DNA of 32,000 nucleotides, taken from Trichlorobacter lovleyi SZ (lineage in GTDB: Bacteria > Desulfobacterota > Desulfuromonadia > Geobacterales > Pseudopelobacteraceae). Made by a program: the position numbers and the translations under genes. The DNA is taken from positions 2,700,001 through 2,732,000 of the forward strand of contig NC_010814.1 of the NCBI RefSeq assembly GCF_000020385.1. The letters are read 5' to 3'. Below the pieces are notes generated by a model. The model had not been told where the DNA came from and searched no databases. It saw only the letters and a list, made by a program, of their open reading frames with translations. Shown piece by piece: positions 555-21,842 of the stretch. Within the stretch, counting starts at the first letter, position 1; the number at the start of each line of letters is the position of its first letter.

Positions 555-1913
555 ATGAAAAAACTGTTCGGCACCGACGGCGTCCGCGGCGTTGCCAATA
601 TCCACCCCATGACCACGGAAACCGCCATGCAGCTGGGACGGGCCGCCGCCTATATCTTCAAGAGCAGCAGCCGGCGCCGCCATAGAATCGTGATCGGCAA
701 GGACACCCGCCTTTCCGGCTACATGCTGGAAAGCGCCCTGGTGGCAGGGATCTGCTCCATGGGGGTAGACGTGCTGCTGGTGGGGCCGCTGCCCACCCCC
801 GGCATTGCCAACATCACCAAATCGATGCGGGCTGACGCCGGTGTCGTGATCTCCGCCTCCCACAACCCGTTTCAGGATAACGGGATCAAGTTCTTCTCCG
901 GCGACGGTTTTAAACTGCCGGATGAGATCGAACTGAAGATGGAAAAACTGCTGGACTCAAAGAAGATCGAGGCGTTACGACCCACCGCCACCGAGGTGGG
1001 CAAGGCATTCCGGATTGATGATGCGGCCGGACGCTACATTGTGTTCCTTAAAAACAGCTTCCCCCCGGAGCTGGACCTGGCCGGTCTCAAGATCGTGCTG
1101 GACTGCGGCAACGGTGCCGCTTACAAGGTGGCGCCGGCAGTATTTGAAGAGCTGGGGGCCGAGGTGATCCCGCTGGGAGTCAAGCCCAACGGCACCAACA
1201 TCAATGCCGGCTGCGGCTCGTTGCACCCGGAGGTGATCAGCGAGGCGGTCAAACAGCACCGGGCTGATATCGGCATTGCCCTGGATGGTGATGCTGACCG
1301 GGTGATTGTCTGCGATGAATTCGGCAATGAGGTCAACGGCGATCAGATCATGGCGATCTGCGCCACCGACATGATTGCCCGTAAACAGCTGAAAAAGAAG
1401 ACCCTGGTGGCCACGGTCATGAGCAACATGGGTCTGGATATCGCCCTGCGCAAGGTGGGCGGCAAGATCATCAAGACCGCCGTAGGCGACCGTTATGTAG
1501 TGGAGGAGATGCGCAAAGGAGGGTATAATCTGGGGGGTGAGCAGTCCGGGCACCTGATCTTTCTGGACAACAACACCACCGGTGACGGCGTGTTGGCGGC
1601 ACTGCAGTTGCTGGCCGTGATGCGGCGCCGGGAAAAACCGCTCTCGGAGCTGGCAGAGGTGATGATCCCGCTGCCCCAGGTGCTGGTCAACGTACGGGTC
1701 AGGGAACGCCAGGATATCATGACCATCCCCCCGGTTGCCGTTGCCATCAAAGGAGTTGAGGAAAAACTGGGCAATGAAGGCAGGGTCCTGATCCGCTACT
1801 CCGGAACCGAGCCGCTGCTGCGGATCATGCTGGAAGGGCAGGACAAATACGAAATAACCGGATGGGCCAACGAGATCGCCGATCTGGTCAGGCAGCAGAT
1901 AGGAGAGAAGTAG
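555..1913 (+). CDS. glmM: Phosphoglucosamine mutase
   Basis: 452 aa. N-terminal FGTDGVRG and active-site serine loop SASHNP. Full-length alpha-D-phosphohexomutase architecture. AAGGAG-type RBS at about 538-544. Confidence 0.95.
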
Positions 1914-1914
1914 C

Positions 1915-2634
1915 ATGGCAAAGCTGGGCTTGAATGTTGATCATATCGCCACGGTCCGTCAGGCCCGCGGCGGCAGTGAACCTGATCCGGTGACCGCTGC
2001 AGCTATCGGTGAACTGGCCGGGGCCGAAGGGATCACGATCCATCTGCGGGAGGACCGCCGCCATATCCAGGACCGCGACCTTGAGATCCTGCGCAGGACC
2101 GTACAGACCAAACTGAACCTTGAAATGGCCGCCACCGACGAGATGGTGGGGATCGCCTGCCGGATCAGGCCGGAACAGTGCACCCTGGTGCCGGAAAAAC
2201 GTCAGGAGCTGACCACTGAAGGCGGCCTGGATGTACTGGGCAACCTGGCCGGCATCACCAGAGCAACCAGCAGTCTGCGCGAGGCAGGGATTGTGGTCAG
2301 TCTGTTTGTTGATCCAACCGTTGAGCAGATCAGGGCCTCAAAGGAAAGTGGTGCCGATGCGATTGAGATCCATACCGGCCGCTATGCGGAGGCCCGCAGT
2401 GAAAAGTCCCGCCACCATGAACTGGCTGCGATCCGGGAGGCAATCAGGCTGGGCAATGAGCTGGGGTTGACCGTGCATGCCGGGCATGGCCTGAATTACG
2501 TCAACATCCTCCCCCTGACCGGACTGGCCGGCATTGAAGAGTTCAATATCGGCCACAGCATCATCTCCCGTGCCATGCTGGTGGGCCTTGACCGGGCGGT
2601 GCGCGAGATGGTGACGCTGATCCGCCGGCCATGA
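1915..2634 (+). CDS. pdxJ: Pyridoxine 5'-phosphate synthase
   Basis: 239 aa. [23 protein letters not shown]-terminus and HLREDRRHI motif typical of PdxJ. ATG is 1 nt after the glmM stop. Confidence 0.93.
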
Positions 2635-3011
2635 TCCTCGGCATCGGCATAGACACGGTTGAAATCAGCCGCTTCCAGCGCTTTCTGGATGAAGACAACC
2701 AGGCCTTGCTGAACCGTCTCTTTGCCCCGGCCGAGCAGGAATACTGCCGCCCCAGGAAACAGGCTGCCTCCTGCCTGGCCGCCCGCTTTGCCGCCAAGGA
2801 GGCCTTTGTCAAGGCACTGGGGACCGGGCTGCGGGACGGCATCTGCTGGACCGAGATAGCAGTCGGCAACGATCAGCTGGGCAAACCGTTCCTGAAACTG
2901 TCAGGACGCGCCCTGCAGCTGTTTTCGGAACAGGGGGCTGCATCCGCACACCTGTCACTGTCCCATGATGGTGGCCATGCGGTTGCGCAGGTCATACTGG
3001 AGGCGCCATGA
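2631..3011 (+). CDS. acpS: Holo-[acyl-carrier-protein] synthase (4'-phosphopantetheinyl transferase)
   Basis: 126 aa. [15 protein letters not shown]-terminus and [12 protein letters not shown] motif. ATGA start/stop overlap with pdxJ, matching the pdxJ-acpS order known from E. coli. Confidence 0.9.
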
Positions 3012-4582
3012 AGATCGTCACCGCCCATACCATGCAGGAGCTGGACCGTCGCGCCATTAACGAATACGGTATTCCCGGCCGTGACCTGATGGAACAGGCC
3101 GGACAGGGCTGTGCCGAGCATATCCTGGCCGCCTATGGTACCCGGAGGAGCAAACGGGTCGTGATCCTGGCCGGCAAAGGCAACAATGGCGGCGACGGGT
3201 ATGTGATTGCCCGCTGCCTGCTGGAAAAAGAGTGGCAGGTGCTGGTGATCGTGCTGGCTGATCGGGACAGCATCCACGGTGATGCTGAAACCAATCTGGT
3301 GCGGCTCCCGGAGGAGATCGTAAGTTTTTGTCCCGGCGACGGGGAACTGACCGAGAAACATGCCGACGACATCCAGCAGGCCGATGTGCTGGTGGATGCG
3401 CTGCTGGGGACCGGTCTGCGCAGTGACCTGACCGGGGTCTATCTAGAGGCGGTGGAACTGATCAACACGGCGCCGGGCAAAGTGGTGGCGGTGGATATTC
3501 CCACCGGTATCCACGGCACCACCGGCCGGATTCTGGGAAAGACCGTCCATGCCAACATGACGGTCACCTTCGGGATCGCCAAGCTGGGCCACGTGCTCTA
3601 CCCGGCTGCCGAGCATGTAGGCAGACTGGTCATCGTGGATATCGGCATTCCGCCCCAGCTGATGCAAGAGGCGGTAGGCTATGACTTTTTGAACGAAAAA
3701 CTGATGGCCCCGCTGGTGAAACGCCGTGACCGCCAGGCCCACAAGGGAACCTACGGCCACTGTCTGATCATTGCCGGATCAACCGGCAAGACCGGCGCAG
3801 CCGCCCTGGCAGCAAACAGTGCCGTCCGGACCGGTTCCGGCCTGGTGACGCTTGCCGTACCGGAAAGCCTCAATCAGATCCTTGAGGTGAAGACCACCGA
3901 GGCGATGACCCTGCCGCTGCCCGATGCCGGCAGCGGACACCTGACGACCCACGCCATTGCCCTGCTTGAAAAGTACCTGCCGGGCAAAAACGCCCTGGCG
4001 ATCGGTCCGGGGATCGACCGCCGCCCTGCCGGTGTCACGGTGGTACAGAACCTGGTGGAGAATATTGCTCTTCCGATGGTGATTGATGCCGATGGCCTGA
4101 ATGCCCTGGCCGAAGACACGACGGTGCTGCACCGCAGGCGTTCCCAGAACATTGTCCTGACCCCCCACCCCGGTGAGATGTCCCGCCTGCTGGGCTCTTC
4201 CATCCCTGATGTGGCTGCCATCCGCATCTCGGTTGCCCAGGAGTTTGCCCGTACCTTCGGGGTGTATGTCGTCCTGAAAGGGGCCCGGACCATCATTGCC
4301 GCGCCCAACGGCATGGCTGCCATCAACGGCAGCGGCAACCCCGGCATGGCAAGCGGCGGCATGGGGGATGTACTGACCGGCATTATCGTATCGCTGCTGG
4401 GCCAGGGCTACTCAACCTGGAACGCCTGCCGCCTGGGGGTATTCATCCACGGCCTGGCCGGTGACCTGGTGGCCATGGAACAGGGCGAAATCGGCATGAC
4501 CGCCACCGACCTGATGGCCCGGATTCCGCTGGCGCTCAACCGGCTCCTGAACCTTCCCGCTAACTATCATCAACCCGTTTAA
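3008..4582 (+). CDS. nnr: Bifunctional NAD(P)H-hydrate repair enzyme (YjeF_N epimerase fused to ADP-dependent dehydratase)
   Basis: 524 aa. N-terminal YjeF_N region (GKGNNGGDGYV) and C-terminal carbohydrate-kinase-like dehydratase region (HKGTYGH, GNPGMASGGMGDVLTG). ATGA overlap with acpS. Confidence 0.9.
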   Translation: MKIVTAHTMQELDRRAINEYGIPGRDLMEQAGQGCAEHILAAYGTRRSKRVVILAGKGNNGGDGYVIARCLLEKEWQVLVIVLADRDSIHGDAETNLVRLPEEIVSFCPGDGELTEKHADDIQQADVLVDALLGTGLRSDLTGVYLEAVELINTAPGKVVAVDIPTGIHGTTGRILGKTVHANMTVTFGIAKLGHVLYPAAEHVGRLVIVDIGIPPQLMQEAVGYDFLNEKLMAPLVKRRDRQAHKGTYGHCLIIAGSTGKTGAAALAANSAVRTGSGLVTLAVPESLNQILEVKTTEAMTLPLPDAGSGHLTTHAIALLEKYLPGKNALAIGPGIDRRPAGVTVVQNLVENIALPMVIDADGLNALAEDTTVLHRRRSQNIVLTPHPGEMSRLLGSSIPDVAAIRISVAQEFARTFGVYVVLKGARTIIAAPNGMAAINGSGNPGMASGGMGDVLTGIIVSLLGQGYSTWNACRLGVFIHGLAGDLVAMEQGEIGMTATDLMARIPLALNRLLNLPANYHQPV

Positions 4583-6989: not shown

Positions 6990-8189
6990 ATGGCAACCAG
7001 CCACAAAACAACATCCCCGGCCAGGCAGACCGGCGCGGATGCAGAACAGGCCCGCATTGCCCGGAATGAGTTTCTCACCAACATGAGCCACGAGATCCGC
7101 ACGCCGATGAACGGCGTGATCGGCATGGCACAGCTGTTGCGGACCACGCCGCTGGACGCCGTCCAGAAGGAGTACCTCGACTGCCTGGAAGTCTCAGCCA
7201 AGAGTCTGATGTACCTGATTAACGACATCATTGACTTCTCCAAGATTGAAGACGGCCAGGTTGAGCTGGAAGAGGTTGACTTCAGCCTGCGCGCCACCAT
7301 CAACAACATCATCAAGACCCAGCATGCCGACCTGCATATCAAAGGACTGGACCTGCTGATCGACATCCCCCATACCGTACCCGACGCCCTCAGGGGTGAT
7401 CAGCTGCATACCAAGCAGATCATTCTCAACCTGCTGGGCAATGCCATCAAATACACCGTACAAGGGACCATCAGGCTGGCGGTCAGCGTTATCGAGCAGC
7501 AGGAGGATCAGATCCTGCTGCTGCTGAGCATCAACGACACCGGCGTCGGCATTGACGAAGAAAATCTGGCCAAGCTGTTTGCACCGCTGCTCCAGACCAG
7601 CTCACCGGCAAACCAGAAACTGGGAGCAAAGGGGTTGGGACTTTCGATCAGCAGGCGGCTGGTTGAGCTGATGGGCGGCAGAATCTGGGCTGAAAGCAAC
7701 GTTGGTGTCGGCAGCAGCTTCCACCTGGCACTACCCTTTATCGTGGCACGCAGAACTGCTGCATCCGATACCGAGGAGGAACAGGACGTCATCTCTTCTC
7801 AGTGGCAAGGTCCGGCCTTACAGATCCTGCTGGCTGAAGACAACGCCATTAACCAGAAATTTGCAGTCACCATCCTTGAACGGATGGGGCACCGGGTCAC
7901 CAGCACCAACAACGGCAAGGAAGCAGTGCAACTCTGGAAACAAGGAACGTTTGATCTGATTCTGATGGATATCCAGATGCCGTTGCAGGACGGAAAGGCC
8001 GCAACAGCCGCCATCAGAAAAGCGGAAGACGGCACTGACCGGCATATACCGATCATTGCCCTGACCGCCCACGCCCTGCAGGAAGAAAAGCTGCAACTGC
8101 TCAGCTCAGGCTTTGACGGCTATGTTCCCAAACCGATGGAGATCAGCGTGCTGACCAGCGAGATGTACAAGGTACTCAGACAGCCTTGA
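6990..8189 (+). CDS. Hybrid sensor histidine kinase/response regulator (HisKA-HATPase_c-REC) without a recognisable sensor or TM region
   Basis: 399 aa. H-box [15 protein letters not shown] starts about 27 aa from the N-terminus. N-box [10 protein letters not shown]-boxes NDTGVGI and [17 protein letters not shown]-terminal receiver [11 protein letters not shown]...LILMDIQMP...KPM. Confidence 0.85.
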
Positions 8190-11327: not shown

Positions 11328-14153
11328 TCACCGTACCTTCCCCACAGGGAACCCCTGCCCACTGATGGAGACCGTGGGAAACTGGGCACGTTTGAAAATC
11401 TTCTCTGCCAGATTCGGCACCTCATCCTCCACATAGGCGGCCAGATCGGTGGTTTTTATATAGCCGCTCCGCCCTTTGTCAGCCTTGCCCTGCAATCCCT
11501 GCACCAGAGTCCAGGTAAACAGCCCATGGCCCTGATAGCCCTCCAAGGCCTCCTGGACAGAGGTAGAGGCAGAAAGGATGGTGGAACCCACCGCACGGGA
11601 CAGCACCTTCATGGCGGTATCCTCACTCATACCGCGGGTCAGAAGGGCGGTCTGCATGGCCTGCCCCAGCTGACCGGCGTTGCAGGTATCGATCACGATC
11701 AGCTTCTTGGTGGAGGGTATGTTGGCCACCAGCTCTTTCAGCGCAGTCTGGGACAAGGCATCACTCTTCAGCTTTTGCGTACTGAGTGCACCAACATTGG
11801 AGGTAATCAGAAAATATTCACCTTCGTCAACCGTGCCGTGGCTGGCAATGTAGAGGATGAACAGGTCATCAGGATTGATGGCCTGGTAGCGTTGCAGGGC
11901 GCCGACAATCGCATCCCGGCTGGTGGCTTCCCGGGTAGTCAACGGGGTAACCCTGACCTCTTCAAACAGGCTGCTGGCCGCCGTGCGCAGGGTCTCGGCA
12001 AACAGATCGGCATCGGCCACGGCGTACTTGAGTTGCAACTTCGGATTACGGAATTCCTGTACACCGATCACCAGGGCATGCAGGGTTGGCTTGCGAATTG
12101 CAGAAAAACTGGCCTGCACCTGATGAACCGCCTCATTGCTCTGCATCGAGTTGTCGGCATTGAAGGCAATGGCCCGAATGGTGTTGCTGCCGGGGGAAAG
12201 CTTGAGGGTATAACTGCGATAGGTTGCATCGCCCCCCTCCTTCTGCACCGCCTTAAGCGAGCGGCTGCTGTCCAGCACGACGGCTGAGCCGTTCAGGAAC
12301 AGCCGCACATCACCAACACCGCCGCCCTGTTCCTCAAGCTTCAGAGTCAGTTTGAATGTCTCGTTGGCAGAACTGACAGCTGTCTGGACGATGCTGGCCC
12401 TGGGAGGCTGTTTGACATCGGCCAGGGTGCGGTACCCCTGCAACGAACCGCCGGCCAGGGCCAGCTTGACCAGGTCGGGTCGAAAGAAGGTCTCGCGGTA
12501 ATTCTCGATGCCATAGATGTTGCTGCCGACACGGACGTTTAGGTACTTATCGCCGTTGGCAGAGGCGTTGTAGTAGCCATCCGGGGTGATAATAATCCAT
12601 TCGCCATCTTCAAAGGTGTACAGATCAGCCAGCTGTTGTTTGGTTTTCCTGCTGCGCAGCTCAAGCTTGTGCCCTGTATCGTGCGTATAAAAATCACCCG
12701 TATTCCTGGTCAGAAAAATCATCCCCTGCAGCTGTCGGTAACGTTGCAGCTCCTGATAGCCGTCCTTCATGAACTCCGGGGGAACCTTGCGGTACAACTC
12801 GTGCGGGTCGAGCACCTCCCAGTCACCCCCCCCCAGGCCGCCGACCTTGGTCCCCTTCAAGCGTGACCGGGTGGTCACATTCTGTTGCTTCAGGGTGGCG
12901 GTCTCCAGATCCCACAGGTGAAACTTCAGCACGGCCTCTTTACGAGAGGCTGACCACTCCTCATGCCAGTTGAGTAGCCGGTTGCCGGAACACAACGAGC
13001 TTCTGAAACCGGCCGGCCTGACCCCAAAGCTCCTGACCAGCTCACCGGTCTGCGTCTGCCAGACCCGTACCCTGCCGTCATTAAACCCAACCCCCAGCAG
13101 TCCGTTGGCAGCAAGCGCATAGGGCCTCGCGTCATAGTTCAGTGATACATGCAGGTTCTCAAAAAGCAGTTTTCTCTCTGTGTACATGCCGTTTTTCAAC
13201 GGGGTGAGCAGCACCAGTTCCATGCGGGCTGCCTGGGGGGTATCGGTTCTATAGACATAGCCGACCAGCAGCCTGCCATCAGGTTCAAATCTGAAAAAGA
13301 GCTGTTCATCCCCGAAACCACCGATCACTTTTGTCTCTTTTATCAGCTCCCGCGGCGTATAGCTGAACACCGGCTGACCGGTTGCCAGATCGTACAGCTG
13401 TATGGCGCTTGAAGACCTCCCCCCCTGATAGGCCACCAGTTTTCCATCCGGTGAAAGCTTGAACTTAGCGCCATGAGAAATGGTTGGAATGACCAGCGAA
13501 CCTTTCCTGCGAACATTCAGGCTATCGTCATACAACACATAGCTAACAGTGCCATCCGGACCTGTGCCCTTGTGGAATACGCCGTAATAGCCGAACCCCA
13601 GATCGGTAACGCCATTGTTCTGGGTATAGATCTCATAGTCTTTATAGCGATTGATCTCTGGCAGGACCAGTTCTGAACCATCCTTCATGCTGTAGATTTT
13701 TATACCGAAAGAACCGTTAAACAGGTACTGACCGTCCTTACCGATGGCCGGATTCTGTAAAAACACGGGGCCTGCAAATCTGGGCAAGGTAATCGAACGC
13801 AGCTTTTTCCCATACAGATCATAGAGTTCGGCTGTTTTTTGATATAGAACCATGAAGGTGCTGTCATCGACAAAATAGATATTCGAGGCACGACCATATT
13901 CCGTTTGCAGCTTGATGGTCCTGATCTCCCGGCCGCTGGCCACCTCCCAGGTCTTCAGGTACCCCTCTGCCTCCTTGCTGACCAGATGACTGGCGCCCGG
14001 ATTGATGGCAACGAATTCGACGAGACCGGCATGCCCGGTTTGGGCAAAAACCTCCTGTTTGTCGGACGCCCATAAAGCCCCCGGCAACGTCCCCAGCATA
14101 AAGCAAAACACCACCGCAGTCAGCATCCAGATGGTTTGAAAGCTGCGCGCCAT
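11328..14153 (-). CDS. Secreted beta-propeller / Ig-like / peptidase C14 (caspase/orthocaspase-type) multidomain protein
   Basis: Start reassigned to ATG at 14153, preceded by GGAGGAG. This gives 941 aa beginning with the signal peptide MARSFQTIWMLTAVVFCFMLGTLPGALWA. The N-terminal two-thirds has repeated beta-strand-rich WD40/TolB-like segments (RVWQTQTGELVRSF, LSPDGKLVAY). An Ig-like segment follows (FKLTLKLEEQGGGVGDVRLFLNG). The C-terminal ~255 aa (about 11331-12095) is a caspase p20-like domain with HALVIGV, ASHG (His codon 11838-11840) and VIDTCNAG (Cys codon 11682-11684). Confidence 0.85.
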   Translation of the reverse strand: MARSFQTIWMLTAVVFCFMLGTLPGALWASDKQEVFAQTGHAGLVEFVAINPGASHLVSKEAEGYLKTWEVASGREIRTIKLQTEYGRASNIYFVDDSTFMVLYQKTAELYDLYGKKLRSITLPRFAGPVFLQNPAIGKDGQYLFNGSFGIKIYSMKDGSELVLPEINRYKDYEIYTQNNGVTDLGFGYYGVFHKGTGPDGTVSYVLYDDSLNVRRKGSLVIPTISHGAKFKLSPDGKLVAYQGGRSSSAIQLYDLATGQPVFSYTPRELIKETKVIGGFGDEQLFFRFEPDGRLLVGYVYRTDTPQAARMELVLLTPLKNGMYTERKLLFENLHVSLNYDARPYALAANGLLGVGFNDGRVRVWQTQTGELVRSFGVRPAGFRSSLCSGNRLLNWHEEWSASRKEAVLKFHLWDLETATLKQQNVTTRSRLKGTKVGGLGGGDWEVLDPHELYRKVPPEFMKDGYQELQRYRQLQGMIFLTRNTGDFYTHDTGHKLELRSRKTKQQLADLYTFEDGEWIIITPDGYYNASANGDKYLNVRVGSNIYGIENYRETFFRPDLVKLALAGGSLQGYRTLADVKQPPRASIVQTAVSSANETFKLTLKLEEQGGGVGDVRLFLNGSAVVLDSSRSLKAVQKEGGDATYRSYTLKLSPGSNTIRAIAFNADNSMQSNEAVHQVQASFSAIRKPTLHALVIGVQEFRNPKLQLKYAVADADLFAETLRTAASSLFEEVRVTPLTTREATSRDAIVGALQRYQAINPDDLFILYIASHGTVDEGEYFLITSNVGALSTQKLKSDALSQTALKELVANIPSTKKLIVIDTCNAGQLGQAMQTALLTRGMSEDTAMKVLSRAVGSTILSASTSVQEALEGYQGHGLFTWTLVQGLQGKADKGRSGYIKTTDLAAYVEDEVPNLAEKIFKRAQFPTVSISGQGFPVGKVR

Positions 14154-14179
14154 AGACTCCTCCAGTCGACACATCAAGT

Positions 14180-14482
14180 TCAACGTACCAGCCGCCATAA
14201 AATGCTGCCAACCACAATCACAAACGTTACCAACAGGGCCGCCACCACAAACCGGTGCGGAACAAATCCGGGATGCTGGCCACCACCTGCGGGAGTACCC
14301 CCGGCAGGAGATTTTCGGCGTCGCATACCCTGCAACAGTGCAGTTGTCAGGCCGCCGAACAAAAGGCTGAAGGCGAGAAAAAAAGCTGCACTGCCAGGCT
14401 GTTCTGCAGTGAACACAAGACCGGAAGTCACCAGGCTGAAGATGGTACAGCATGCGAAGACAACCAGCATGGCAATGCGCAT
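14180..14482 (-). CDS. Small predicted integral membrane protein (three hydrophobic helices), first gene of the caspase/CHAT operon
   Basis: 100 aa from ATG 14482, with AAGGGG 6 nt upstream. Three about 20-aa hydrophobic stretches are separated by a basic Gly/Pro-rich loop (MRRRKSPAGGTPAGGG). Ends 26 nt before the caspase gene start. No family recognised, so coding status rests on ORF, RBS and hydrophobicity only. Confidence 0.5.
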   Translation of the reverse strand: MRIAMLVVFACCTIFSLVTSGLVFTAEQPGSAAFFLAFSLLFGGLTTALLQGMRRRKSPAGGTPAGGGQHPGFVPHRFVVAALLVTFVIVVGSILWRLVR

Positions 14483-14623
14483 GACCATCCCCTTTCTTTA
14501 CACCGCATGAACTGCTCACCATGATAGCACAATCCTGGTGGTTTTCAGGGTTGGCTTGCAGATCTATCTGTTGCTGGTATAGTCGATGCTGCAATCTCAC
14601 ACAACAACACACGAGGATTCAAT

Positions 14624-15124
14624 ATGCAGACTGCCCGACTTGTCTGTTGCCTGTTGTCAATCATGCTGGCCGCATCTGGCCTGTCCCGGTCGGTAGCCGC
14701 CGCCGAACTGCCGGAAACGTGCCGTTTGCAACCGGTGAATGGCCGTTGCAAGGCGATGATAGAAAAATTCAGGTTTGATCAGGCCTGCGGGAAATGCGTT
14801 GCCTATTTTTACGACGGTTGTGGCCCGGTGGTACCTTTTGACAGCCTGGACGCCTGCCGGCAACTGTGTGAAGCAGCACAACCCGCACTGAAAAAGCGCG
14901 CCTCCGGCCTGTACTATGACCCGGTTGAGGATGACCCGCGTTATGCCGAGGTCTTCAGGAAGATTGATGCTGAGGTTCAAGAGGCACTTACCGGCCATCC
15001 GCAGCGGGGCAGCATGGGGTTCGTGCATCTGGTCTGGGAGACAAAGAAACGGATCTTGCTGCAGAAATACGGAATTGACTGGAAGACACCGGCGGAACTG
15101 AACCCGCAGGTCATGTTCGATTAG
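14624..15124 (+). CDS. Secreted protein with N-terminal BPTI/Kunitz-type protease inhibitor domain and an uncharacterised C-terminal domain
   Basis: 166 aa. GAGGA RBS 6 nt upstream. Signal peptide MQTARLVCCLLSIMLAASGLSRSVAAA. Cys spacing C33-x8-C42-x15-C58-x7-C66-x11-C78-x3-C82 (nt about 14720-14869) compares with the canonical Kunitz x8/x15/x7/x12/x3. Local matches to BPTI: GRCKAMIEKFRFD vs GPCKARIIRYFYN, YFYDGCG vs FVYGGCR, DACRQLC vs EDCMRTC. Confidence 0.7.
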   Translation: MQTARLVCCLLSIMLAASGLSRSVAAAELPETCRLQPVNGRCKAMIEKFRFDQACGKCVAYFYDGCGPVVPFDSLDACRQLCEAAQPALKKRASGLYYDPVEDDPRYAEVFRKIDAEVQEALTGHPQRGSMGFVHLVWETKKRILLQKYGIDWKTPAELNPQVMFD

Positions 15125-16359
15125 CCGGCAGCAGGGCTGTCATGCAGCGCCTTGACAACCGCTGCAACAACAGGGTCCCATTCCCCGGGTTCGGACTGGC
15201 GGAACAGCCGCATGTTCGGATACCAGCAGCACTGTTCCCCTGACAACCCCCAGCGCCAGTCCGGCGCAAACGGCACCAGCAGCCAGGTGGGCTTACCCAG
15301 TACGCCTGCCAGATGGGCCACAGCCGTATCAATGGTGATCACCAGATCAAGCCGCTCCAGCAAAGCCGCGGTATCGGCAAAATCCTGCACCAGCATGGTC
15401 AGGTCAACCATTGGCAGAGCAGGTTTTTCAACCGGCTCCCCCACCTGCAGAGACACCCACAGGGTACCGGTACAGGAGGCCAATTGTGCAAGCAGTGCGG
15501 CAGGCAGGCTGCGCCCCGGATCCGGATAGCGTTTGCCGGACCAACAGAGTCCAATCCGTTTGCTGACGTTGTCACCGGGCAGTACGCTCTGCCAGAACGG
15601 CAGCCGCGCGGCAGGCGTGGTCAGATACGGCACAACAGCCGGAATAGTCTCAAGGGTACTGCCCAGCAGGTACGGCAAGGACAGCAACGGCAGCTGGTAA
15701 TCAAAGTCAGTCAGATCCCGGCCGAACGGCAGTACCGTGATACCGGCGCCAAGGCTCTGCATCAGCGGGACCAGAGGAGGATGGCACTCGAACAGCACCT
15801 CTGCCCCCCGCTCCACCAGCAGCGGCAGATAGCGGCAGAACTGCAGGGTATCGCCAAAGCCCTGCTCGGCATAGATCAGGATGGTCTTGGCGGAGAGATC
15901 ACCACCAGACCAGCGGGGCTGGGAAAACTCACGCACCGGTGAGGTAAAGCGCCGTTTTTTCCAACGCCACTCATACTCTCTGAATCCGGCAGTGTAATTG
16001 CCTTGCAGCAACAGCAGCAGGGCATAATTCCAATGGGCCTCAGCATGATTCGGAGAGGCCTTCAACACCTTTGCGCATTCAACCAGGGCCTGCTGCACCT
16101 CTCCCTGCATCTGCAGACAGGTGGACAGGGCCACCCGGCTGTCATGCAACGAAGGGGCAAGTTGCAACGCCTGCTGATAACTTTTGACCGCCTGATCGAT
16201 AAAACCGAGTTCCAGCAACGTGTTGCCGCGGTTGTTCCAGAGCAGCGCCAGGGTGGGCCAGCGTCCGACCGCCTCATCGTACAGGGACAGGGCTTCATCA
16301 TAACGCCCGGCCTCGTGCAACGCTGCGCCTTCACGCATTATCTTTTCCAGCTCACCCAT
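15121..16359 (-). CDS. TPR-repeat protein with C-terminal glycosyltransferase family 9 (heptosyltransferase-like) domain
   Basis: 412 aa. N-terminal TPR repeats. C-terminal region with AEQGFGDTLQFCRYLPLL and ITIDTAVAHLAG motifs typical of the TPR+GT9-like family. AGGGG RBS. Starts 13 nt after the valS stop. Confidence 0.75.
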   Translation of the reverse strand: MGELEKIMREGAALHEAGRYDEALSLYDEAVGRWPTLALLWNNRGNTLLELGFIDQAVKSYQQALQLAPSLHDSRVALSTCLQMQGEVQQALVECAKVLKASPNHAEAHWNYALLLLLQGNYTAGFREYEWRWKKRRFTSPVREFSQPRWSGGDLSAKTILIYAEQGFGDTLQFCRYLPLLVERGAEVLFECHPPLVPLMQSLGAGITVLPFGRDLTDFDYQLPLLSLPYLLGSTLETIPAVVPYLTTPAARLPFWQSVLPGDNVSKRIGLCWSGKRYPDPGRSLPAALLAQLASCTGTLWVSLQVGEPVEKPALPMVDLTMLVQDFADTAALLERLDLVITIDTAVAHLAGVLGKPTWLLVPFAPDWRWGLSGEQCCWYPNMRLFRQSEPGEWDPVVAAVVKALHDSPAAG

Positions 16360-16372
16360 CGGCTACCCCTGG

Positions 16373-19066
16373 CTACTTCAGATTTCTGATCTTCTCCAGG
16401 CTTTCTTCCAGTACCGCCTTCTTTGCAGTAACGTCTGCCAGCTTGGCCTTTTCCTTGGCAACAATGTCAGCCGGAGCCCGGTCAACAAAGCTGGGATTCT
16501 CCAGTTTTTTCGAGAACTGCTCGATCTCTTTATCCAGCTTGGCGATCTCCTTCAGGAGCCGCTTCTCCTCTTCAGCCACATCCACCAGCCCCTTCAGCGG
16601 GACAAAGACCTGAAACCTGCCGGCCGGCTGCACAGAGGCATCTTCCGGCTTTTCCAGGTTACGCCCGATGGTCAGATCGGCCACCCGGGCCATGCTCCTG
16701 ATCTTTGATTCAAACAGTCGCGCCAGATCCTCGGCCTGCTGGGAACCTGTTGAAAGGATAACCGTAATTTCACGGGATGGAGGGACTTCCATCTCACCAC
16801 GAATGGTACGGATCGCCGAGATGACCTCCATCACCTGCTCCATCCGGCCGGCTGCGTCTTCAAACTGCCAGTCTTCACGGGGTTGCGGATAAGGGGCCAA
16901 CATGATGGATGGAGGCCAGTCGCCGCCTGATCCACGCAGATTGCAGCGGTCGCCCTTGGGCAGGGTCTGCCAGATCTCCTCAGTAATAAACGGCATGATC
17001 GGATGCAGCAGACGCAGCAGGTGTTCCAGCACGCTCCAGAGCACATACTGGGTAGTGCGGCGGCGCAGCGGATCATCACCGTACAGCTCCTGCTTGGACA
17101 GCTCCAGGTACCAGTCGCAGAACTCGCTCCAGGTAAACTGGTACAGCGTCATGGCTGCCTCGTTAAAACGGTACTCGTCAAGAGCCTGGTTGGTTGCACG
17201 GGCGGTTTCATTCAGACGGTGCAGGATCCATTCATCGGACTCGGTCAACCGCAGGTCTTCAAAAACCAGTTGATCCGGCTCAAAACCTTCCAGATTCATC
17301 ATGGTAAAGCGGGCCGCATTCCAGACCTTGTTGCAGAAATTGCGGTAACCGGAGATCCGCTCTTCAGCCAGCTTGATATCCCGACCCTGGGCGGCAAAAG
17401 CAGCCAGCGTAAAACGGAAGGCATCGGTACCGTACTGGTCGATCACCGTCAGCGGATCAATCACATTCCCCTTTGACTTGGACATCTTCTGGCCGTGGGC
17501 ATCCCGTACTAGGGCATGGATATAGACATCCTTGAACGGCACCTCATCCATGAAGTGCAGTCCCATCATCATCATGCGGGCTACCCAGAAGAAGAGGATG
17601 TCAAAGCCGGTCACCAGGGTTGCGGTGGGATAAAACCTTTTCAGCTCAGCGGTCTGATCAGGCCAGCCCATGGTGGAGAACGGCCAGAGTGCCGAAGAGA
17701 ACCAGGTGTCCAGCACGTCGGTTTCCTGGCGGAGTTCGTCACTGCCACACTGGCTGCAACTGGTCGGGTCTTCCATGGAAACGGTTATCTTGCCACAATG
17801 ATCGCAGAACCAGGCCGGGATACGGTGTCCCCACCAGATCTGACGCGAGATACACCAGTCCCGAATGTTCTCCATCCAGTCGTAATAGGTGTTTTCCCAC
17901 TGTTTGGGCAGGATGCGGGTACGACCATCCTTGACCGCCTGCAGCGCACGCTCGGCCAGCGGGCCAACCTTGACGTACCACTGCAGGGAGAGGTACGGCT
18001 CCACCACGGTCTTGCAACGGTAGCAGCCCCCCACCGACAGACCGTGATCGTCGATCTTCTCCAGCAGCCCTGCAACCTCAAGGTCCTCCACAATCCTGGT
18101 GCGGGCCTTGAAACGATCCAATCCTTCGTACTGATGTCCGGCAGCATTGATAATGCCCGACTCATCAAAGACATTGATCTTGTCCAGACCGTGGCGTGCC
18201 CCCACCTCAAAGTCGTTGAAATCATGGGCCGGGGTGATCTTGACCACACCGGTGCCGAACTCGCGGTCCACATACTCATCCGCAACCACCGGAATCTCAC
18301 GGTTCACCAGCGGCAGCAGCACCTTGGCGCCATGCAGATCGGCGTAGCGTTCATCTTCCGGATGCACCGCCACGGCGGTATCCCCCAGCATGGTCTCGGG
18401 CCGGGTGGTGGCCACGGTCAGGAAGCGGCCCGGCTGCCCCACCACCGGATAGCGGATATGCCAGAGGTGCCCCTTTTTCTCTTCATGCTCCACCTCGATA
18501 TCGGAAAGGGCGGTATGGCAGCGGGGACACCAGTTGATCAGGCGGTTATCGCGGTAGATCAACCCGTCCTCGTACAGTTTGACAAAGACCGTGCGCACCG
18601 CCTTGGACAGACCGGCATCCATGGTAAAGCGTTCCCGTTCCCAGTCACAGGAGGCACCCAGCCGCTTCAGTTGTCCAATGATCTGGCCACCCGACTCGGC
18701 CTTCCATTGCCAGACCCGCTCGATAAACGCCTCGCGCCCCAGATCATGACGATCCTTGCCTTCTGCAGCCAGTTGCCGCTCCACCACGTTCTGGGTGGCG
18801 ATACCGGCATGGTCGGTACCGGGCATCCAGAGCACGCTGTGACCGGTCATCCGCTTCCAGCGACAGAGGATATCCTGCAGGGTATTGTTGAGGGCATGCC
18901 CCATATGCAGGGCACCGGTGACGTTGGGCGGTGGGATGACAATACTGTAAGGTCTGCGGGGAGAGGCTTCATCAGCATGAAAATAGCCCTTTTCAGCCCA
19001 CTCGCCGTACCATTTTTTCTCTACCTCATGGGGTTCGTACCCCTTGGCCAGTTCCTTGTTGGACAT
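16373..19066 (-). CDS. valS: Valine--tRNA ligase
   Basis: Class I signatures PPPNVTGALHMGHA (HIGH) and KMSKSKGN (KMSKS). C-terminal coiled-coil arm. I prefer ATG at 19066 (GGGAA 6 nt upstream) over the GTG at 19069 used by the ORF track. Confidence 0.95.
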   Translation of the reverse strand: MSNKELAKGYEPHEVEKKWYGEWAEKGYFHADEASPRRPYSIVIPPPNVTGALHMGHALNNTLQDILCRWKRMTGHSVLWMPGTDHAGIATQNVVERQLAAEGKDRHDLGREAFIERVWQWKAESGGQIIGQLKRLGASCDWERERFTMDAGLSKAVRTVFVKLYEDGLIYRDNRLINWCPRCHTALSDIEVEHEEKKGHLWHIRYPVVGQPGRFLTVATTRPETMLGDTAVAVHPEDERYADLHGAKVLLPLVNREIPVVADEYVDREFGTGVVKITPAHDFNDFEVGARHGLDKINVFDESGIINAAGHQYEGLDRFKARTRIVEDLEVAGLLEKIDDHGLSVGGCYRCKTVVEPYLSLQWYVKVGPLAERALQAVKDGRTRILPKQWENTYYDWMENIRDWCISRQIWWGHRIPAWFCDHCGKITVSMEDPTSCSQCGSDELRQETDVLDTWFSSALWPFSTMGWPDQTAELKRFYPTATLVTGFDILFFWVARMMMMGLHFMDEVPFKDVYIHALVRDAHGQKMSKSKGNVIDPLTVIDQYGTDAFRFTLAAFAAQGRDIKLAEERISGYRNFCNKVWNAARFTMMNLEGFEPDQLVFEDLRLTESDEWILHRLNETARATNQALDEYRFNEAAMTLYQFTWSEFCDWYLELSKQELYGDDPLRRRTTQYVLWSVLEHLLRLLHPIMPFITEEIWQTLPKGDRCNLRGSGGDWPPSIMLAPYPQPREDWQFEDAAGRMEQVMEVISAIRTIRGEMEVPPSREITVILSTGSQQAEDLARLFESKIRSMARVADLTIGRNLEKPEDASVQPAGRFQVFVPLKGLVDVAEEEKRLLKEIAKLDKEIEQFSKKLENPSFVDRAPADIVAKEKAKLADVTAKKAVLEESLEKIRNLK

Positions 19067-19186
19067 CACGACTTCCCTGCCTTTACATGTTTTTACAGCG
19101 GATTGTGTTTATATACCGATGCAGCTGCCCCGGTCAAGGTTCTGCTCAAGCACGGTTCGCCAAGCAATTTTCATTAAAATTACCAT

Positions 19187-19278: not shown

Positions 19279-19608
19279 ATGCAGCATCACTCCATGCGCA
19301 ACCTGTTGGCCGGTCTCAGTATCACCACACTCATTGCCGGTATGGCATCAGTCTCAGCTGCCGAGACGGCGCCGGCAGCTCCTGCAGAAAACGGAAAGCC
19401 GGCCACAGAGTCGGGCCCCAGCGGCTGCGGCGGCATGAAAAAGTGCCCCAAGTGTGCTAAACATACAAGCGATGGTGCCAGTGGCTGCGGTGGGGCCATG
19501 AAGCAGCCGCAAGCAGAGCAACCTGCCCCGCCCAAAGGGGCCAGCGGCTGCGGTGGAGCATCCGGCTGCGGTGGCGGAACAAAGCCTGCCACGCCTCCCA
19601 AGCAATAA
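19279..19608 (+). CDS. sbtA: Cys-type precursor peptide of the SbtA (thio(seleno)oxazole RiPP / GeoRSP) family
   Basis: 109 aa. AAAGGA RBS 7 nt upstream. Hydrophobic signal-like leader MRNLLAGLSITTLIAGMASVSAAE. Low-complexity Pro/Ala/Gly/Lys-rich core with four S-G-C-G-G motifs (Cys50, 70, 91, 97) plus CPKC. Paralogous to the Sec-containing gene at 19848-20189 and upstream of an rSAM/SPASM enzyme. Confidence 0.8.
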   Translation: MQHHSMRNLLAGLSITTLIAGMASVSAAETAPAAPAENGKPATESGPSGCGGMKKCPKCAKHTSDGASGCGGAMKQPQAEQPAPPKGASGCGGASGCGGGTKPATPPKQ

Positions 19609-20345: not shown

Positions 20346-21842
20346 TTGCATGAGCTTGATCCGGAAACCGTGCCCGCCCAGCTGGAAAAGGTGGCCGGCC
20401 TGACCCACCCGGAATGGTTGCCGGATCTGGCCCGGCTGGAGCTGGGCTGTCACCGGGCCATGAATATTCCGCTGCCCCAGCCAGAAGAGCTGCAGACCCT
20501 GACCATCAACCCCTCATTGCAACTGCTACCGGTTCCCTGGACACATCTGCTGACCCTGCTGACCTTTGGCAAAAAGCAGGATATGGAACGGGTTGAGCCG
20601 GGTGAAGAACTGGTGCTGATCTGGTCTGATCCGACAAACAGGAATCTGCGATTTGAAACGGCCCTGCCGGACCACCTGCTGGCATTGAAGATGGTGACCG
20701 AAGGGATAACCCCGGAGGAGGCGGCACAACAGGCAAACCAGCCGATTGCACTGTTCGATGCCGTGCTGTGGGATGCTGTGCGCAAAGGGGTCCTGCTGGC
20801 ACCGCTGTCGCGTCTGCGCCGTACCCCGGCGATTGCATCACAGGCGGTTGATAATCGTTTCGTTGCAGCCGAGGTGTTCACCCTGCAATGGCATCTGACC
20901 CAGAGTTGCGACCTGTCCTGCAAGCATTGTTACGACCGCAGCCAACGGGCAGCCTTCCCGTTTGACCGCGCCGTCACATTGATGCAGGAGCTGCGCGATT
21001 TCTGCTGGAGCCGCTTTGTACGACCCCAGGTTTCATTCAGCGGCGGCAATCCACTCCTGCATCCGGATTTCTACCGGATCTATCAGGCGGCAGCTGACCA
21101 CGGCCTGATGACCGCCATCCTCGGGAACGCCACCGAACGCAGCAACATTGAACGGCTAATGGCGATCCAGCGTCCGGTCTACTATCAGGTCAGTCTTGAA
21201 GGGCTGGAAGAACATAACGACAGCATCCGGGGAGAAGGCAACTTCAAACGGACGATTGCATTTCTTGAAATGTTGACTGAGCTGGGGGTGCCCAACATGG
21301 TGATGCTGACCCTGACCAGGAACAATCTTGATCAGGTGATCCCGTTGGCTGCAGTTCTGGAGGGTATTACCGGCGGATTGACCTTCAACCGCCTGGCCCT
21401 GTTCGGTGAGGGGGCGCGGCTGGCGCTGCCCACCCGTGAGGAATACAAGGCATTTCTTGAGCAGTATGTGGCAGCCATGCCGACCCACCCGGTGCTGGCA
21501 CTGAAAGACAGTCTGCTCAACGTAATCTACGATGACCGGGGCGAACCGTTGTTCGGCGGCTGCGCCGGATTCGGCTGCGGTGCCGCTTTCAACTTCATTG
21601 CCATCCTCTCCGATGGTGAGGTGCATGCCTGCCGAAAATTTCCTTCTCCCATCGGCAACATCCTGAAGCAGAGCCTTGAGGAGGTCTACAACGCTGAAAC
21701 GGCAGCACGTTATCGGGATGGTTCAACCGCCTGTCACGGCTGCAAACTGAAACCGGTCTGCGGTGGCTGCCTGGCGGTAACCGCCAGTTTTGGCCATGAT
21801 CCCCTGACCAGCAAAGACCCTTACTGCTTCAGGACAAAGTGA
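20346..21842 (+). CDS. sbtM: Radical SAM/SPASM peptide maturase of the SbtM (thio(seleno)oxazole modification) family
   Basis: CxxxCxxC cluster motif CDLSCKHC (nt 20907-20930). C-terminal SPASM-type Cys-rich region (GCAGFGCGAA..., CRKF, CHGCKLKPVCGGC). About 165-aa N-terminal extension precedes the rSAM core. Immediately follows two SG[C/U]GG precursor genes. The ORF-track start is a TTG at 20346; the true start may be upstream (see findings). Confidence 0.88.
   Translation: MHELDPETVPAQLEKVAGLTHPEWLPDLARLELGCHRAMNIPLPQPEELQTLTINPSLQLLPVPWTHLLTLLTFGKKQDMERVEPGEELVLIWSDPTNRNLRFETALPDHLLALKMVTEGITPEEAAQQANQPIALFDAVLWDAVRKGVLLAPLSRLRRTPAIASQAVDNRFVAAEVFTLQWHLTQSCDLSCKHCYDRSQRAAFPFDRAVTLMQELRDFCWSRFVRPQVSFSGGNPLLHPDFYRIYQAAADHGLMTAILGNATERSNIERLMAIQRPVYYQVSLEGLEEHNDSIRGEGNFKRTIAFLEMLTELGVPNMVMLTLTRNNLDQVIPLAAVLEGITGGLTFNRLALFGEGARLALPTREEYKAFLEQYVAAMPTHPVLALKDSLLNVIYDDRGEPLFGGCAGFGCGAAFNFIAILSDGEVHACRKFPSPIGNILKQSLEEVYNAETAARYRDGSTACHGCKLKPVCGGCLAVTASFGHDPLTSKDPYCFRTK

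Follow-up and report, generated by a model that had tools for sequence, protein, structure and literature searches.

The 32,000-nucleotide stretch of the Trichlorobacter lovleyi SZ genome analysed here (the window) contains a gene for a 166-residue protein in which a Kunitz/BPTI domain is followed by a second, C-terminal domain. The Kunitz domain is genuine and full-length, and its match lies far beyond chance. Its second domain, made up of the last 72 residues, folds as a separate module and represents a large uncharacterised family, which is new here. We are confident that the gene encodes an exported two-domain protein, export being predicted from its N-terminus. Its most likely role is that of a substrate-like inhibitor, in the periplasm or at the cell surface, that would act on a Lys/Arg-specific endopeptidase.

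The Pfam family PF00014 matches residues 32-83 along its full length (positions 1-53 of 53; E-value 6.4e-9), and the score of 36.3 bits clears the gathering threshold of 21. The six cysteines of the domain (C33, C42, C58, C66, C78 and C82) have the spacing 8-15-7-11-3, and an additional cysteine, C55, is present. The initial annotation, which had recognised a secreted 166-residue product with this Kunitz spacing, is borne out by the profile match, and inspection of the N-terminus likewise predicts secretion. An AlphaFold2 (AF2) model of the protein, built on an alignment of 32 homologues, has a mean predicted local distance difference test (pLDDT) score of 81.7, with 82-86 over the Kunitz part. 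There, strands 46-52 and 57-63 and a helix at 75-83 correspond to the expected hairpin and C-terminal helix. A comparison of the predicted structure with BPTI had been proposed as a check, and the outcome was positive. With Foldseek, the model superposes on APPI, BPTI, TFPI, textilinin and ShPI-1, with template modelling (TM) scores of 0.76-0.82 (target-normalised) and root-mean-square deviations of 1.5-1.8 Å; identity reaches 42% among these matches. The closest solved proteins by sequence in a PDB search are boophilin domain 1 (E 3e-13), TFPI and APPI (E 2e-9), and the domain is 35-42% identical to inhibitors with solved complexes with trypsin, mesotrypsin and factor XIa. The predicted disulfide topology, implied by the fold superposition together with the cysteine alignment, is 1-6, 2-4 and 3-5. 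A chance cysteine pattern in the 166-residue protein was rejected on the evidence of the hidden Markov model match and the fold.

The reactive loop of the window protein, GRCKAMIEKFRF, aligns with GPCRAMISRWYF of APPI, GPCKAIMKRFFF of TFPI-K1 and GICKALIPRFYF of boophilin. Residues G40-R41-C42-K43-A44-M45-I46 align one by one with GPCRAMI of APPI and GPCKARI of BPTI. Lys43 comes directly after the second cysteine, a position equal to K15 of BPTI and R15 of APPI, and this confirms the P1-P1' pair Lys-Ala (Lys43-Ala44) that had been proposed earlier. On the primed side, A-M-I is identical in APPI. A database search found 87 homologues, all with PF00014 and from Geobacteraceae-type sources; some 70 cover the full length, with identities of 48-92%. 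Among these 70 full-length proteins, Lys occupies P1 in 69 and Met in one, and the spacing 8-15-7-11-3 is universal. The C-K-A-(M/L) loop is almost invariant, and the invariant positions are C33, P37, G40, C42, A44, C58, Y61, G65, C66, G67, F72, C78 and C82. A seventh cysteine occurs in just two of the 70, so that C55, correctly noted before as an extra residue, is lineage-specific. The near-invariance of the P1 Lys and the loop and the invariance of the cysteine spacing indicate purifying selection on the reactive site. A binding loop under such constraint is more readily explained by a functional inhibitor than by a scaffold that has decayed or been put to another use. The orthologue in Trichlorobacter thiogenes is 87% identical and is publicly named 'trypsin inhibitor domain-containing protein'. 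Some records name these Kunitz proteins 'proteinase inhibitor I4 serpin' (P0029 and P0470); this is a misannotation, as PF00014 is present and there is no serpin domain.

The C-terminal part had been described as a distinct second domain, and this view is upheld by the AF2 model of residues 95-166 folded alone from a diverse alignment, which has a pLDDT of 93.4 and a predicted TM score of 0.81. The predicted fold consists of two long antiparallel helices, short helices and an ordered tail, and the sequence carries the motifs DPxEDDPRY and W..KK.IL..KYGIDW(K/R)(T/S)PAELNP...FD-COOH. The domain has no match in Pfam, NCBIfam, PHROG or PADLOC, scans of the whole protein against the last three were equally empty, and Pfam searches at E<=10 with eight diverse carriers of the domain gave only noise. 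Foldseek found no significant fold match for the model in the PDB (best E 0.87) or BFVD (best E 0.44). A profile search of 1.84 billion representative proteins identified 1,743 clusters at E<=1e-3 and 927 at E<=1e-10, with hosts among the Bacteroidota, Planctomycetota, Verrucomicrobiota, Clostridia, Cyanobacteria and others. The domain is nearly always found at the extreme C-terminus of the protein, which ends in ...PAE(L/M)NPxxx(F/Y)D. It can stand alone (about 70-80 residues, without a signal peptide) or follow varied N-terminal regions or domains. Ten positions are invariant in an alignment across fusion and non-fusion proteins, and in most cytoplasmic members G-x-C-H takes the place of the G-F-V-H seen in the exported Geobacter proteins.

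The fusion of a Kunitz domain to this C-terminal domain is a rare architecture. It is found in Geobacterales only, except for a fragmentary match in a metagenome-assembled genome (MAG) labelled Anaeromyxobacter (L023). Among the compared loci, which are designated by L numbers, the carriers of the C-terminal domain include L020-L089 besides the window. The only recurrent neighbour of genes with the C-terminal domain alone is DUF1963 (YwqG-like), at six loci and with no proteases. These loci belong to Bacteroidales and Clostridia (L041:10229-10894 (+), L050, L053, L057, L062 and L071), and their arrangement resembles that of immunity-protein gene arrays.

The Kunitz domain belongs to a prokaryote-specific clade and is not a recent animal import. 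The hallmark of this clade is a C4-C5 interval shortened by one residue (to 11) with a GCG(G/P)VVPF motif. The one-residue deletion between C66 and C78 noted in the initial annotation is therefore present, but it is no peculiarity of this protein, since the whole clade shares it. Members come from a Gammaproteobacteria MAG, Marinimicrobia, Campylobacterales, Syntrophaceae, several Bacteroidota and ammonia-oxidising archaea. The same annotation had considered bacterial Kunitz domains rare, and this does not hold. A word-based search with the domain profile gave at least 413 clusters at 90% identity, many of them from cultured Bacteroidota, including Maribacter sp. HTCC2170, Allomuricauda, Costertonia aggregata and Larkinella harenae, and NCBI and UniProt already label many of the proteins 'BPTI/Kunitz domain-containing protein'. 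Most members are single-domain proteins of 78-100 residues that are exported or lipoprotein-like. P1 is mostly Lys in the single-domain proteins and varies (K, R, Y, E, F) in other lineages of the clade.

Other Kunitz genes were observed at several of the compared loci. Geomobilimonas luticola (L017) encodes a 351-residue protein with ankyrin repeats and a C-terminal Kunitz domain as well as a second small Kunitz protein, both a few kb from the fusion gene (L017:14784-15839 (+) and L017:16810-17247 (+)). An internal Kunitz domain is found in proteins of 554-586 residues in Syntrophaceae and delta-proteobacterial MAGs (L058, 8969-10633; L054, 8891-10651). At L094, a second Kunitz gene is present, with a WD40 protein and a radical SAM enzyme nearby.

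Together, these properties suggest a mode of action. The protein would be exported by the Sec pathway and would exist as a disulfide-bonded two-domain protein in the periplasm or at the cell surface. Its N-terminal domain would act as a canonical (Laskowski-type) Kunitz inhibitor, whose rigid loop G40-R41-C42-K43-A44-M45 inserts Lys43 into the S1 pocket of the target enzyme. The enzyme would then be blocked by the Kunitz domain, which it could hydrolyse only very slowly as a pseudo-substrate. The C-terminal helical module may localise the inhibitor or tether it to a partner. Candidate targets are exogenous trypsin-like proteases, which would amount to ecotin-like protection, or trypsin-like proteases encoded elsewhere in the genome.

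The coordinates of the gene, its domains and its neighbours are collected in the table. The predicted signal peptide begins with MQTAR, continues with a hydrophobic core and ends in SVAAA|E. In the AF2 model of the whole protein, an N-terminal helix is followed by low-confidence residues 18-26, and an equivalent hydrophobic N-terminus is found in the alignment of all homologues. The linker between the two domains varies in length among homologues and is up to about 15 residues longer in a clade of 179-residue forms; the pLDDT falls to 67 in this block.

Features of the Kunitz-fusion gene and its neighbourhood (positions within the window)
Feature	Coordinates	Strand	Basis
Kunitz + orphan-domain gene, 166 residues	14624..15124	+	open reading frame (ORF) list and sequence; stop codon counted in
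Predicted Sec signal peptide, residues 1-27	14624..14704	+	sequence inspection only
Kunitz/BPTI domain, residues 32-83	14717..14872	+	PF00014, Foldseek, PDB sequence matches
Codon AAG for Lys43, predicted P1	14750..14752	+	loop alignment
Linker, residues 84-94	14873..14905	+	alignment; pLDDT dip
Orphan C-terminal helical domain, residues 95-166	14906..15121	+	AF2, profile search
Promoter-like element	14556..14583	+	alignment of upstream regions
Shine-Dalgarno-like GAGGA, ATG 6 nucleotides further on	14613..14617	+	read from sequence
Predicted multi-pass membrane protein, 102 residues, first divergent gene	14180..14488	-	ORF; no Pfam family
Exported WD40-like beta-propeller + Peptidase_C14, 947 residues from MARSFQT...	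11328..14171	-	PF00656, WD40-type matches
Exported TPR + CHAT protein, 1025 residues	8199..11276	-	PF12770 CHAT E 1.6e-59, TPR_12 E 1.3e-59
Hybrid histidine kinase/response regulator	6990..8189	+	HisKA, HATPase_c, Response_reg; far edge of variable block
TPR + GT9-like glycosyltransferase, convergent; context gene	15121..16359	-	domain matches; stop overlaps Kunitz stop
ValRS	16373..19069	-	beside TPR-GT9

The promoter-like element consists of TTGCAG (14556-14561), a spacer of 16 nucleotides and an extended -10 sequence, TGgTATAGT, with its hexamer at 14578-14583. It is the sole conserved block in an alignment of the upstream regions of the window, T. thiogenes (L001) and a Geobacter locus (L004), and a partial match occurs in L008. 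The element reads as a putative sigma-70-type promoter with an extended -10. A generic scan for promoters and terminators upstream and downstream of the Kunitz gene gave two weak promoter-like matches and no terminator, the conserved element lying below the scan threshold. The intergenic region is divergent, as stated before, and its extent is 14489-14623 (135 nucleotides, not 141) if the 102-residue ORF is taken as the first gene. Downstream, the convergent stop codons of the Kunitz and TPR-GT9 genes overlap by about 4 nucleotides (15121-15124) with no terminator-like hairpin between them, and the overlap is also found in T. thiogenes.

The order of genes in the window, from the left, is PGM, PdxJ, YjeF, CBS, TsaE, AspK, the hybrid HisKA-RR gene, TPR-CHAT (-) and WD40-like-C14 (-), followed by the 102-residue membrane ORF (-), Kunitz (+), TPR-GT9 (-) and ValRS (-). 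The neighbours had been described as exported caspase-like proteases, and the WD40-C14 and TPR-CHAT proteins fit this description. PF00656 matches residues 698-935 of the C14 protein (E 8e-16), with the motifs SHG and DTCNAG. On inspection, the His/Cys dyads of both proteins are intact (SHG...DTCNAG in C14, FATHA...LSACVTG in CHAT), and the Kunitz, C14 and CHAT proteins all have signal-peptide-like N-termini. The C14 gene most likely starts at 14171; the mechanical ORF (11328-14612, -) runs 147 codons past this start and overlaps the 102-residue membrane ORF. The CHAT protein has an orthologue at the equivalent place in T. thiogenes and Geobacter metagenome loci. The 102-residue membrane ORF is conserved in T. 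thiogenes (L001 9557..9955) and is absent from other Geobacter loci. The hybrid histidine kinase, a possible part of the Kunitz/protease module, also occurs in T. thiogenes and L008 but is missing from a site that has neither the Kunitz gene nor the proteases (L092). TPR-GT9 adjoins ValRS with or without the Kunitz gene.

A profile of eight C14 domains from these clusters finds the MALT1 paracaspase as the best match in the PDB (E 6e-17), followed by metacaspases and Geobacter GSU0716. The C14 domain of the window, used alone as a query sequence against the PDB, gave no caspase-family match. Two Asp residues are invariant in the cluster C14 domains and align with the Asp of 'PLVDV' and of 'LDMC' in MALT1. 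We take these to be Asp365 and Asp462, of the Arg-binding S1 pocket. MALT1 uses these two aspartates for a basic P1 residue, and their invariance is in keeping with the preference for Arg/Lys that had been assigned to the C14 enzymes. Characterised non-caspase C14 enzymes cleave after Arg/Lys (PMC5756287). A P1-Lys inhibitor is thus chemically compatible with these proteases. Lys at P1 would fit the putative C14 S1 aspartates, but it is a generic trypsin-inhibitor residue too.

In our judgement there is about an even chance that the target is a trypsin-type serine protease not encoded next door and that the protein has an ecotin-like protective role. Several observations weigh against this preferred reading. 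The 40s loop is unlike that of eukaryotic Kunitz domains, with VVPF and a one-residue deletion instead of GNxNNF. Literature searches on bacterial Kunitz proteins, on Kunitz proteins in Geobacter and on Kunitz proteins with orthocaspases returned nothing relevant, and no paper that characterises any prokaryotic Kunitz protein, or assays inhibition by one, was found. Domain scans detected no serine protease encoded in the window, nor does one occur recurrently near any homologue. The layout of the window is kept in T. thiogenes and in every locus of the Geobacter/Trichlorobacter clade with enough flank (the window, L001/L010, L004-L009, L011, L013, L016 and L101-L104). In these loci, the Kunitz gene is always divergent from a cluster that includes one or more C14 genes and, in most cases, a CHAT gene. 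Lastly, the Kunitz gene and the protease cluster are both missing from the empty sites at L092 and in Trichlorobacter ammonificans (L090). In L092, where TPR-GT9 is 72% identical, ValRS/TPR-GT9 lies directly beside AspK, and the layout of L090 is similar. Joint presence or absence thus held at the occupied sites and the two empty ones, a small and phylogenetically non-independent sample.

The distribution of the genes puts this linkage in perspective. A survey of whether Kunitz genes recur beside C14/CHAT genes had been suggested earlier; the neighbourhood does recur, but only in one syntenic locus of one bacterial family. The adjacency is confined to the block AspK/HisKA ... C14/CHAT - Kunitz - TPR-GT9 - ValRS of Geobacter/Trichlorobacter, and because the housekeeping flanks are equally syntenic, adjacency among close relatives carries little independent weight. 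The neighbouring C14 proteins within the block have the architectures WD40-C14, C14-FGE-sulfatase, PDZ-thioredoxin-WD40-C14, PDZ-Peptidase_S41-C14 and plain C14, with up to four C14 genes in a cluster. One such chain, at L016:1336-3741 (-) in the cluster upstream of the Kunitz gene, is an 801-residue protein with PDZ, Peptidase_S41 (serine protease) and Peptidase_C14 domains. From the protease side, a metagenome scan with the catalytic domain of the window C14 protein gave 79 loci at 66-95% identity, 42 of them with at least 1.2 kb upstream. A Kunitz gene was present in 4 of these 42 evaluable loci (L101-L104, 90-95% identity), precisely those carrying TPR-GT9/ValRS. The other 38, at 66-87% identity, had neither a Kunitz nor a C-terminal-domain ORF, and no other recurrent inhibitor-like gene was found upstream of the C14 loci without Kunitz.

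A distant clade of the fusion (L017-L019 and L094-L096) is sited elsewhere in the genome, and no C14/CHAT neighbour was detected at these loci. It comprises mostly 179-residue forms at 52-57% identity and one 168-residue form, and Geomobilimonas luticola is one of its sources (L017). Small TPR proteins and a small membrane protein accompany it. The latter, encoded downstream of the fusion gene in the 179-residue clade, was considered as a homologue of the 102-residue ORF and rejected (about 23% identity, no common motif). In L018, a Geobacteraceae MAG, a same-strand cluster brings together two unrelated families of protease inhibitor; it encodes, in order, a TPR protein, a bacterial serpin (PF00079, E 9e-115), a YdjM-like membrane protein, the Kunitz fusion and a small membrane protein (cluster coordinates 1276-2469 (+), 2527-3132 and 3164-3703); no protease is encoded in this 8-kb contig, whose left edge is cut. 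The window contains no serpin. YdjM is also found between the CHAT and C14 genes of T. thiogenes. No protease, C14/CHAT included, adjoins the Kunitz-only genes sampled in other phyla.

These data allow the possible targets to be weighed. Trypsin-like serine proteases are somewhat more likely than the neighbouring proteases. The fusion without a C14/CHAT neighbour in six distant-clade loci favours a non-neighbour target, as do the close C14 homologues, which mostly lack a Kunitz neighbour (4 of 42 have one), and the serpin co-cluster in L018 points to a target of the serine-protease type. Characterised Kunitz domains with Lys or Arg at P1 are overwhelmingly inhibitors of trypsin-like S1 proteases, and ecotin of E. 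coli provides a periplasmic precedent for inhibitors directed against exogenous proteases. Alternatively, the Kunitz protein could be a dedicated periplasmic inhibitor of the divergently encoded exported C14 proteases, and perhaps of the CHAT protease, until a signal releases them, with Lys43 filling their acidic S1 pockets. We regard such a cognate brake, proposed in the initial annotation, as rather unlikely. Adjacency to at least one C14 gene in all flanked Geobacter/Trichlorobacter loci despite differing C14 architectures, the joint absence at L092 and L090, the signal-peptide-like N-termini seen on inspection of all three proteins, and the retained His/Cys dyad with two invariant Asp that align with the MALT1 S1 aspartates agree with it, as does the cleavage after Arg/Lys by non-caspase C14 enzymes (PMC5756287); FhKT1, moreover, has a Kunitz fold and is active against cysteine proteases, not serine proteases (PMC5016662). 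Yet the adjacency lies within a block with syntenic housekeeping flanks (ValRS, TPR-GT9, AspK) and hence is not independent evidence, a Kunitz gene is lacking at the 38 loci whose C14 domains are 66-87% identical, the distant fusion clade and all sampled Kunitz-only genes have no C14/CHAT neighbour, and the Kunitz gene has its own conserved promoter-like element. To our knowledge, no clan CD peptidase is inhibited by a Kunitz protein, and the literature searches brought up no such case. A dedicated pairing is therefore only partly supported, by the adjacency and joint loss in Geobacter/Trichlorobacter, and is weakened by the distribution data. It is quite unlikely that the Geobacter/Trichlorobacter fusion is a cross-class inhibitor of exported clan-CD proteases (C14 orthocaspase-type, CHAT or both) that is delivered by its C-terminal domain; the invariant ...NPxVxFD-COOH tail, for example, would dock onto the TPR or WD40 modules of the proteases.

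The Kunitz domain could also be a non-inhibitory scaffold, serving as a binding, adhesion or toxin-like module in a protein whose main function resides in the C-terminal domain. Animal Kunitz folds do serve non-protease targets: dendrotoxins and the collagen VI C5 domain are non-inhibitory examples, and dendrotoxin, calcicludine and mambaquaretin are among the fold matches of the model. The C-terminal domain, with its 10 invariant positions, is the more strongly conserved and has a far wider distribution, and P1 is varied elsewhere in the prokaryotic clade (K, R, Y, E, F). What makes this alternative very doubtful is that the P1 Lys and the canonical loop are nearly invariant in the fusion family and that the loop is nearest to those of true inhibitors (APPI, TFPI-K1, boophilin D1), not toxins. 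Hardly credible is a recent horizontal acquisition of an animal Kunitz domain, as a one-off without bacterial function. The best PDB identities are to metazoan proteins (35-42%), but the signature of the domain (GGCGGVVPF-type, 11-residue C4-C5 loop) is that of a clade specific to prokaryotes, and the fusion family has diverged to 48% identity yet kept the reactive loop.

Some further features of these loci lie outside the Kunitz and protease genes. A 109-residue secreted protein (window 19279-19608, +) contains repeated A-S-G-C-G-G motifs and has no Pfam match; it is followed by a radical SAM/SPASM gene (20346..21842), and the two may be a peptide-maturation pair. Related loci have genes with faint PF27804 GSU1558_StbA-like matches in the equivalent place downstream of ValRS. 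In T. ammonificans (L090, 1-9800), defence-type genes, with JetC/JetD-like Wadjet genes among them, replace ValRS beside the TPR-GT9 homologue. In another Geobacterales genome (L093, 350-9740), ValRS is replaced by TerB, BrxC/BrxD-like, DEAD helicase, BrnA, PIN, HicB, Fic and RhuM genes. Such defence-type neighbours in both genomes suggest that TPR-GT9 lies at the edge of a variable region.

Public databases already annotate close homologues as Kunitz proteins, and such proteins are numerous in bacteria. The new items are modest: a fusion architecture restricted to Geobacterales, and a C-terminal part that represents a large family absent from the libraries examined. If the protein is an active inhibitor, it offers an experimentally tractable bacterial member of the BPTI/Kunitz family, with an orthologue in the cultured Trichlorobacter thiogenes ATCC BAA-34, and a first handle on the role of hundreds of annotated prokaryotic Kunitz proteins. 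The C-terminal module is a sizeable family with a confident predicted fold and merits a family entry. Little is known of how bacterial caspase-family proteases are regulated and what they do (PMC3501461, PMC5756287). If the less likely pairing with C14/CHAT were true, it would show how bacteria restrain such proteases when exported. Inhibition of clan-CD proteases by the fusion would be the first pairing of a Kunitz inhibitor with the caspase family and would, for the first time, assign a function to a domain present in more than 1,700 clusters.

The protein can be compared with several known systems. It shares with APPI, BPTI and TFPI (PF00014, MEROPS I2) the fold, the order of the six cysteines and the canonical loop, here with Lys at P1 and Ala at P1', and its P2'-P3' residues, Met-Ile, are identical to those of APPI. 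Unlike these proteins, it has a C4-C5 loop shorter by one residue in which VVPF replaces GNxNNF, and it is a bacterial protein, exported by a predicted signal peptide and fused to an unrelated C-terminal helical domain. The single-domain prokaryotic Kunitz proteins (such as those of Maribacter sp. HTCC2170, Allomuricauda, Costertonia, Saprospiraceae, Campylobacterales MAGs and Nitrosopumilus) have the same GCG(G/P)VVPF motif and 11-residue loop, are likewise exported or lipoprotein-like, and mostly have Lys at P1. They and other prokaryotic Kunitz proteins differ from the window fusion in being single-domain proteins of 78-100 residues or fusions of other kinds (ankyrin, large unknown protein).

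FhKT1 is a Kunitz inhibitor of cathepsin L from Fasciola hepatica (PMC5016662, PMC7692546). As a Kunitz protein acting on cysteine proteases, it is the sole cross-class precedent found of the kind that the pairing idea needs, but it is eukaryotic and targets clan CA (papain-like) rather than clan CD (C14/CHAT) enzymes. Bacterial serpins are related to the present case through the serpin gene in the Kunitz-orthologue cluster of L018, and they differ from Kunitz inhibitors in their fold and suicide mechanism. Plant serpins inhibit Arg/Lys-specific C14 enzymes, one such example being AtSerpin1 and AtMC9. The functional analogy that we favour is with ecotin, a bacterial, Sec-exported, substrate-like inhibitor without an adjacent target protease, which is thought to shield the envelope from exogenous trypsin-fold proteases. 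Ecotin is a dimer of family I11 with Met at P1 and a broad specificity. It resembles the window protein as a bacterial exported substrate-like inhibitor, and differs from it in belonging to an unrelated fold and family.

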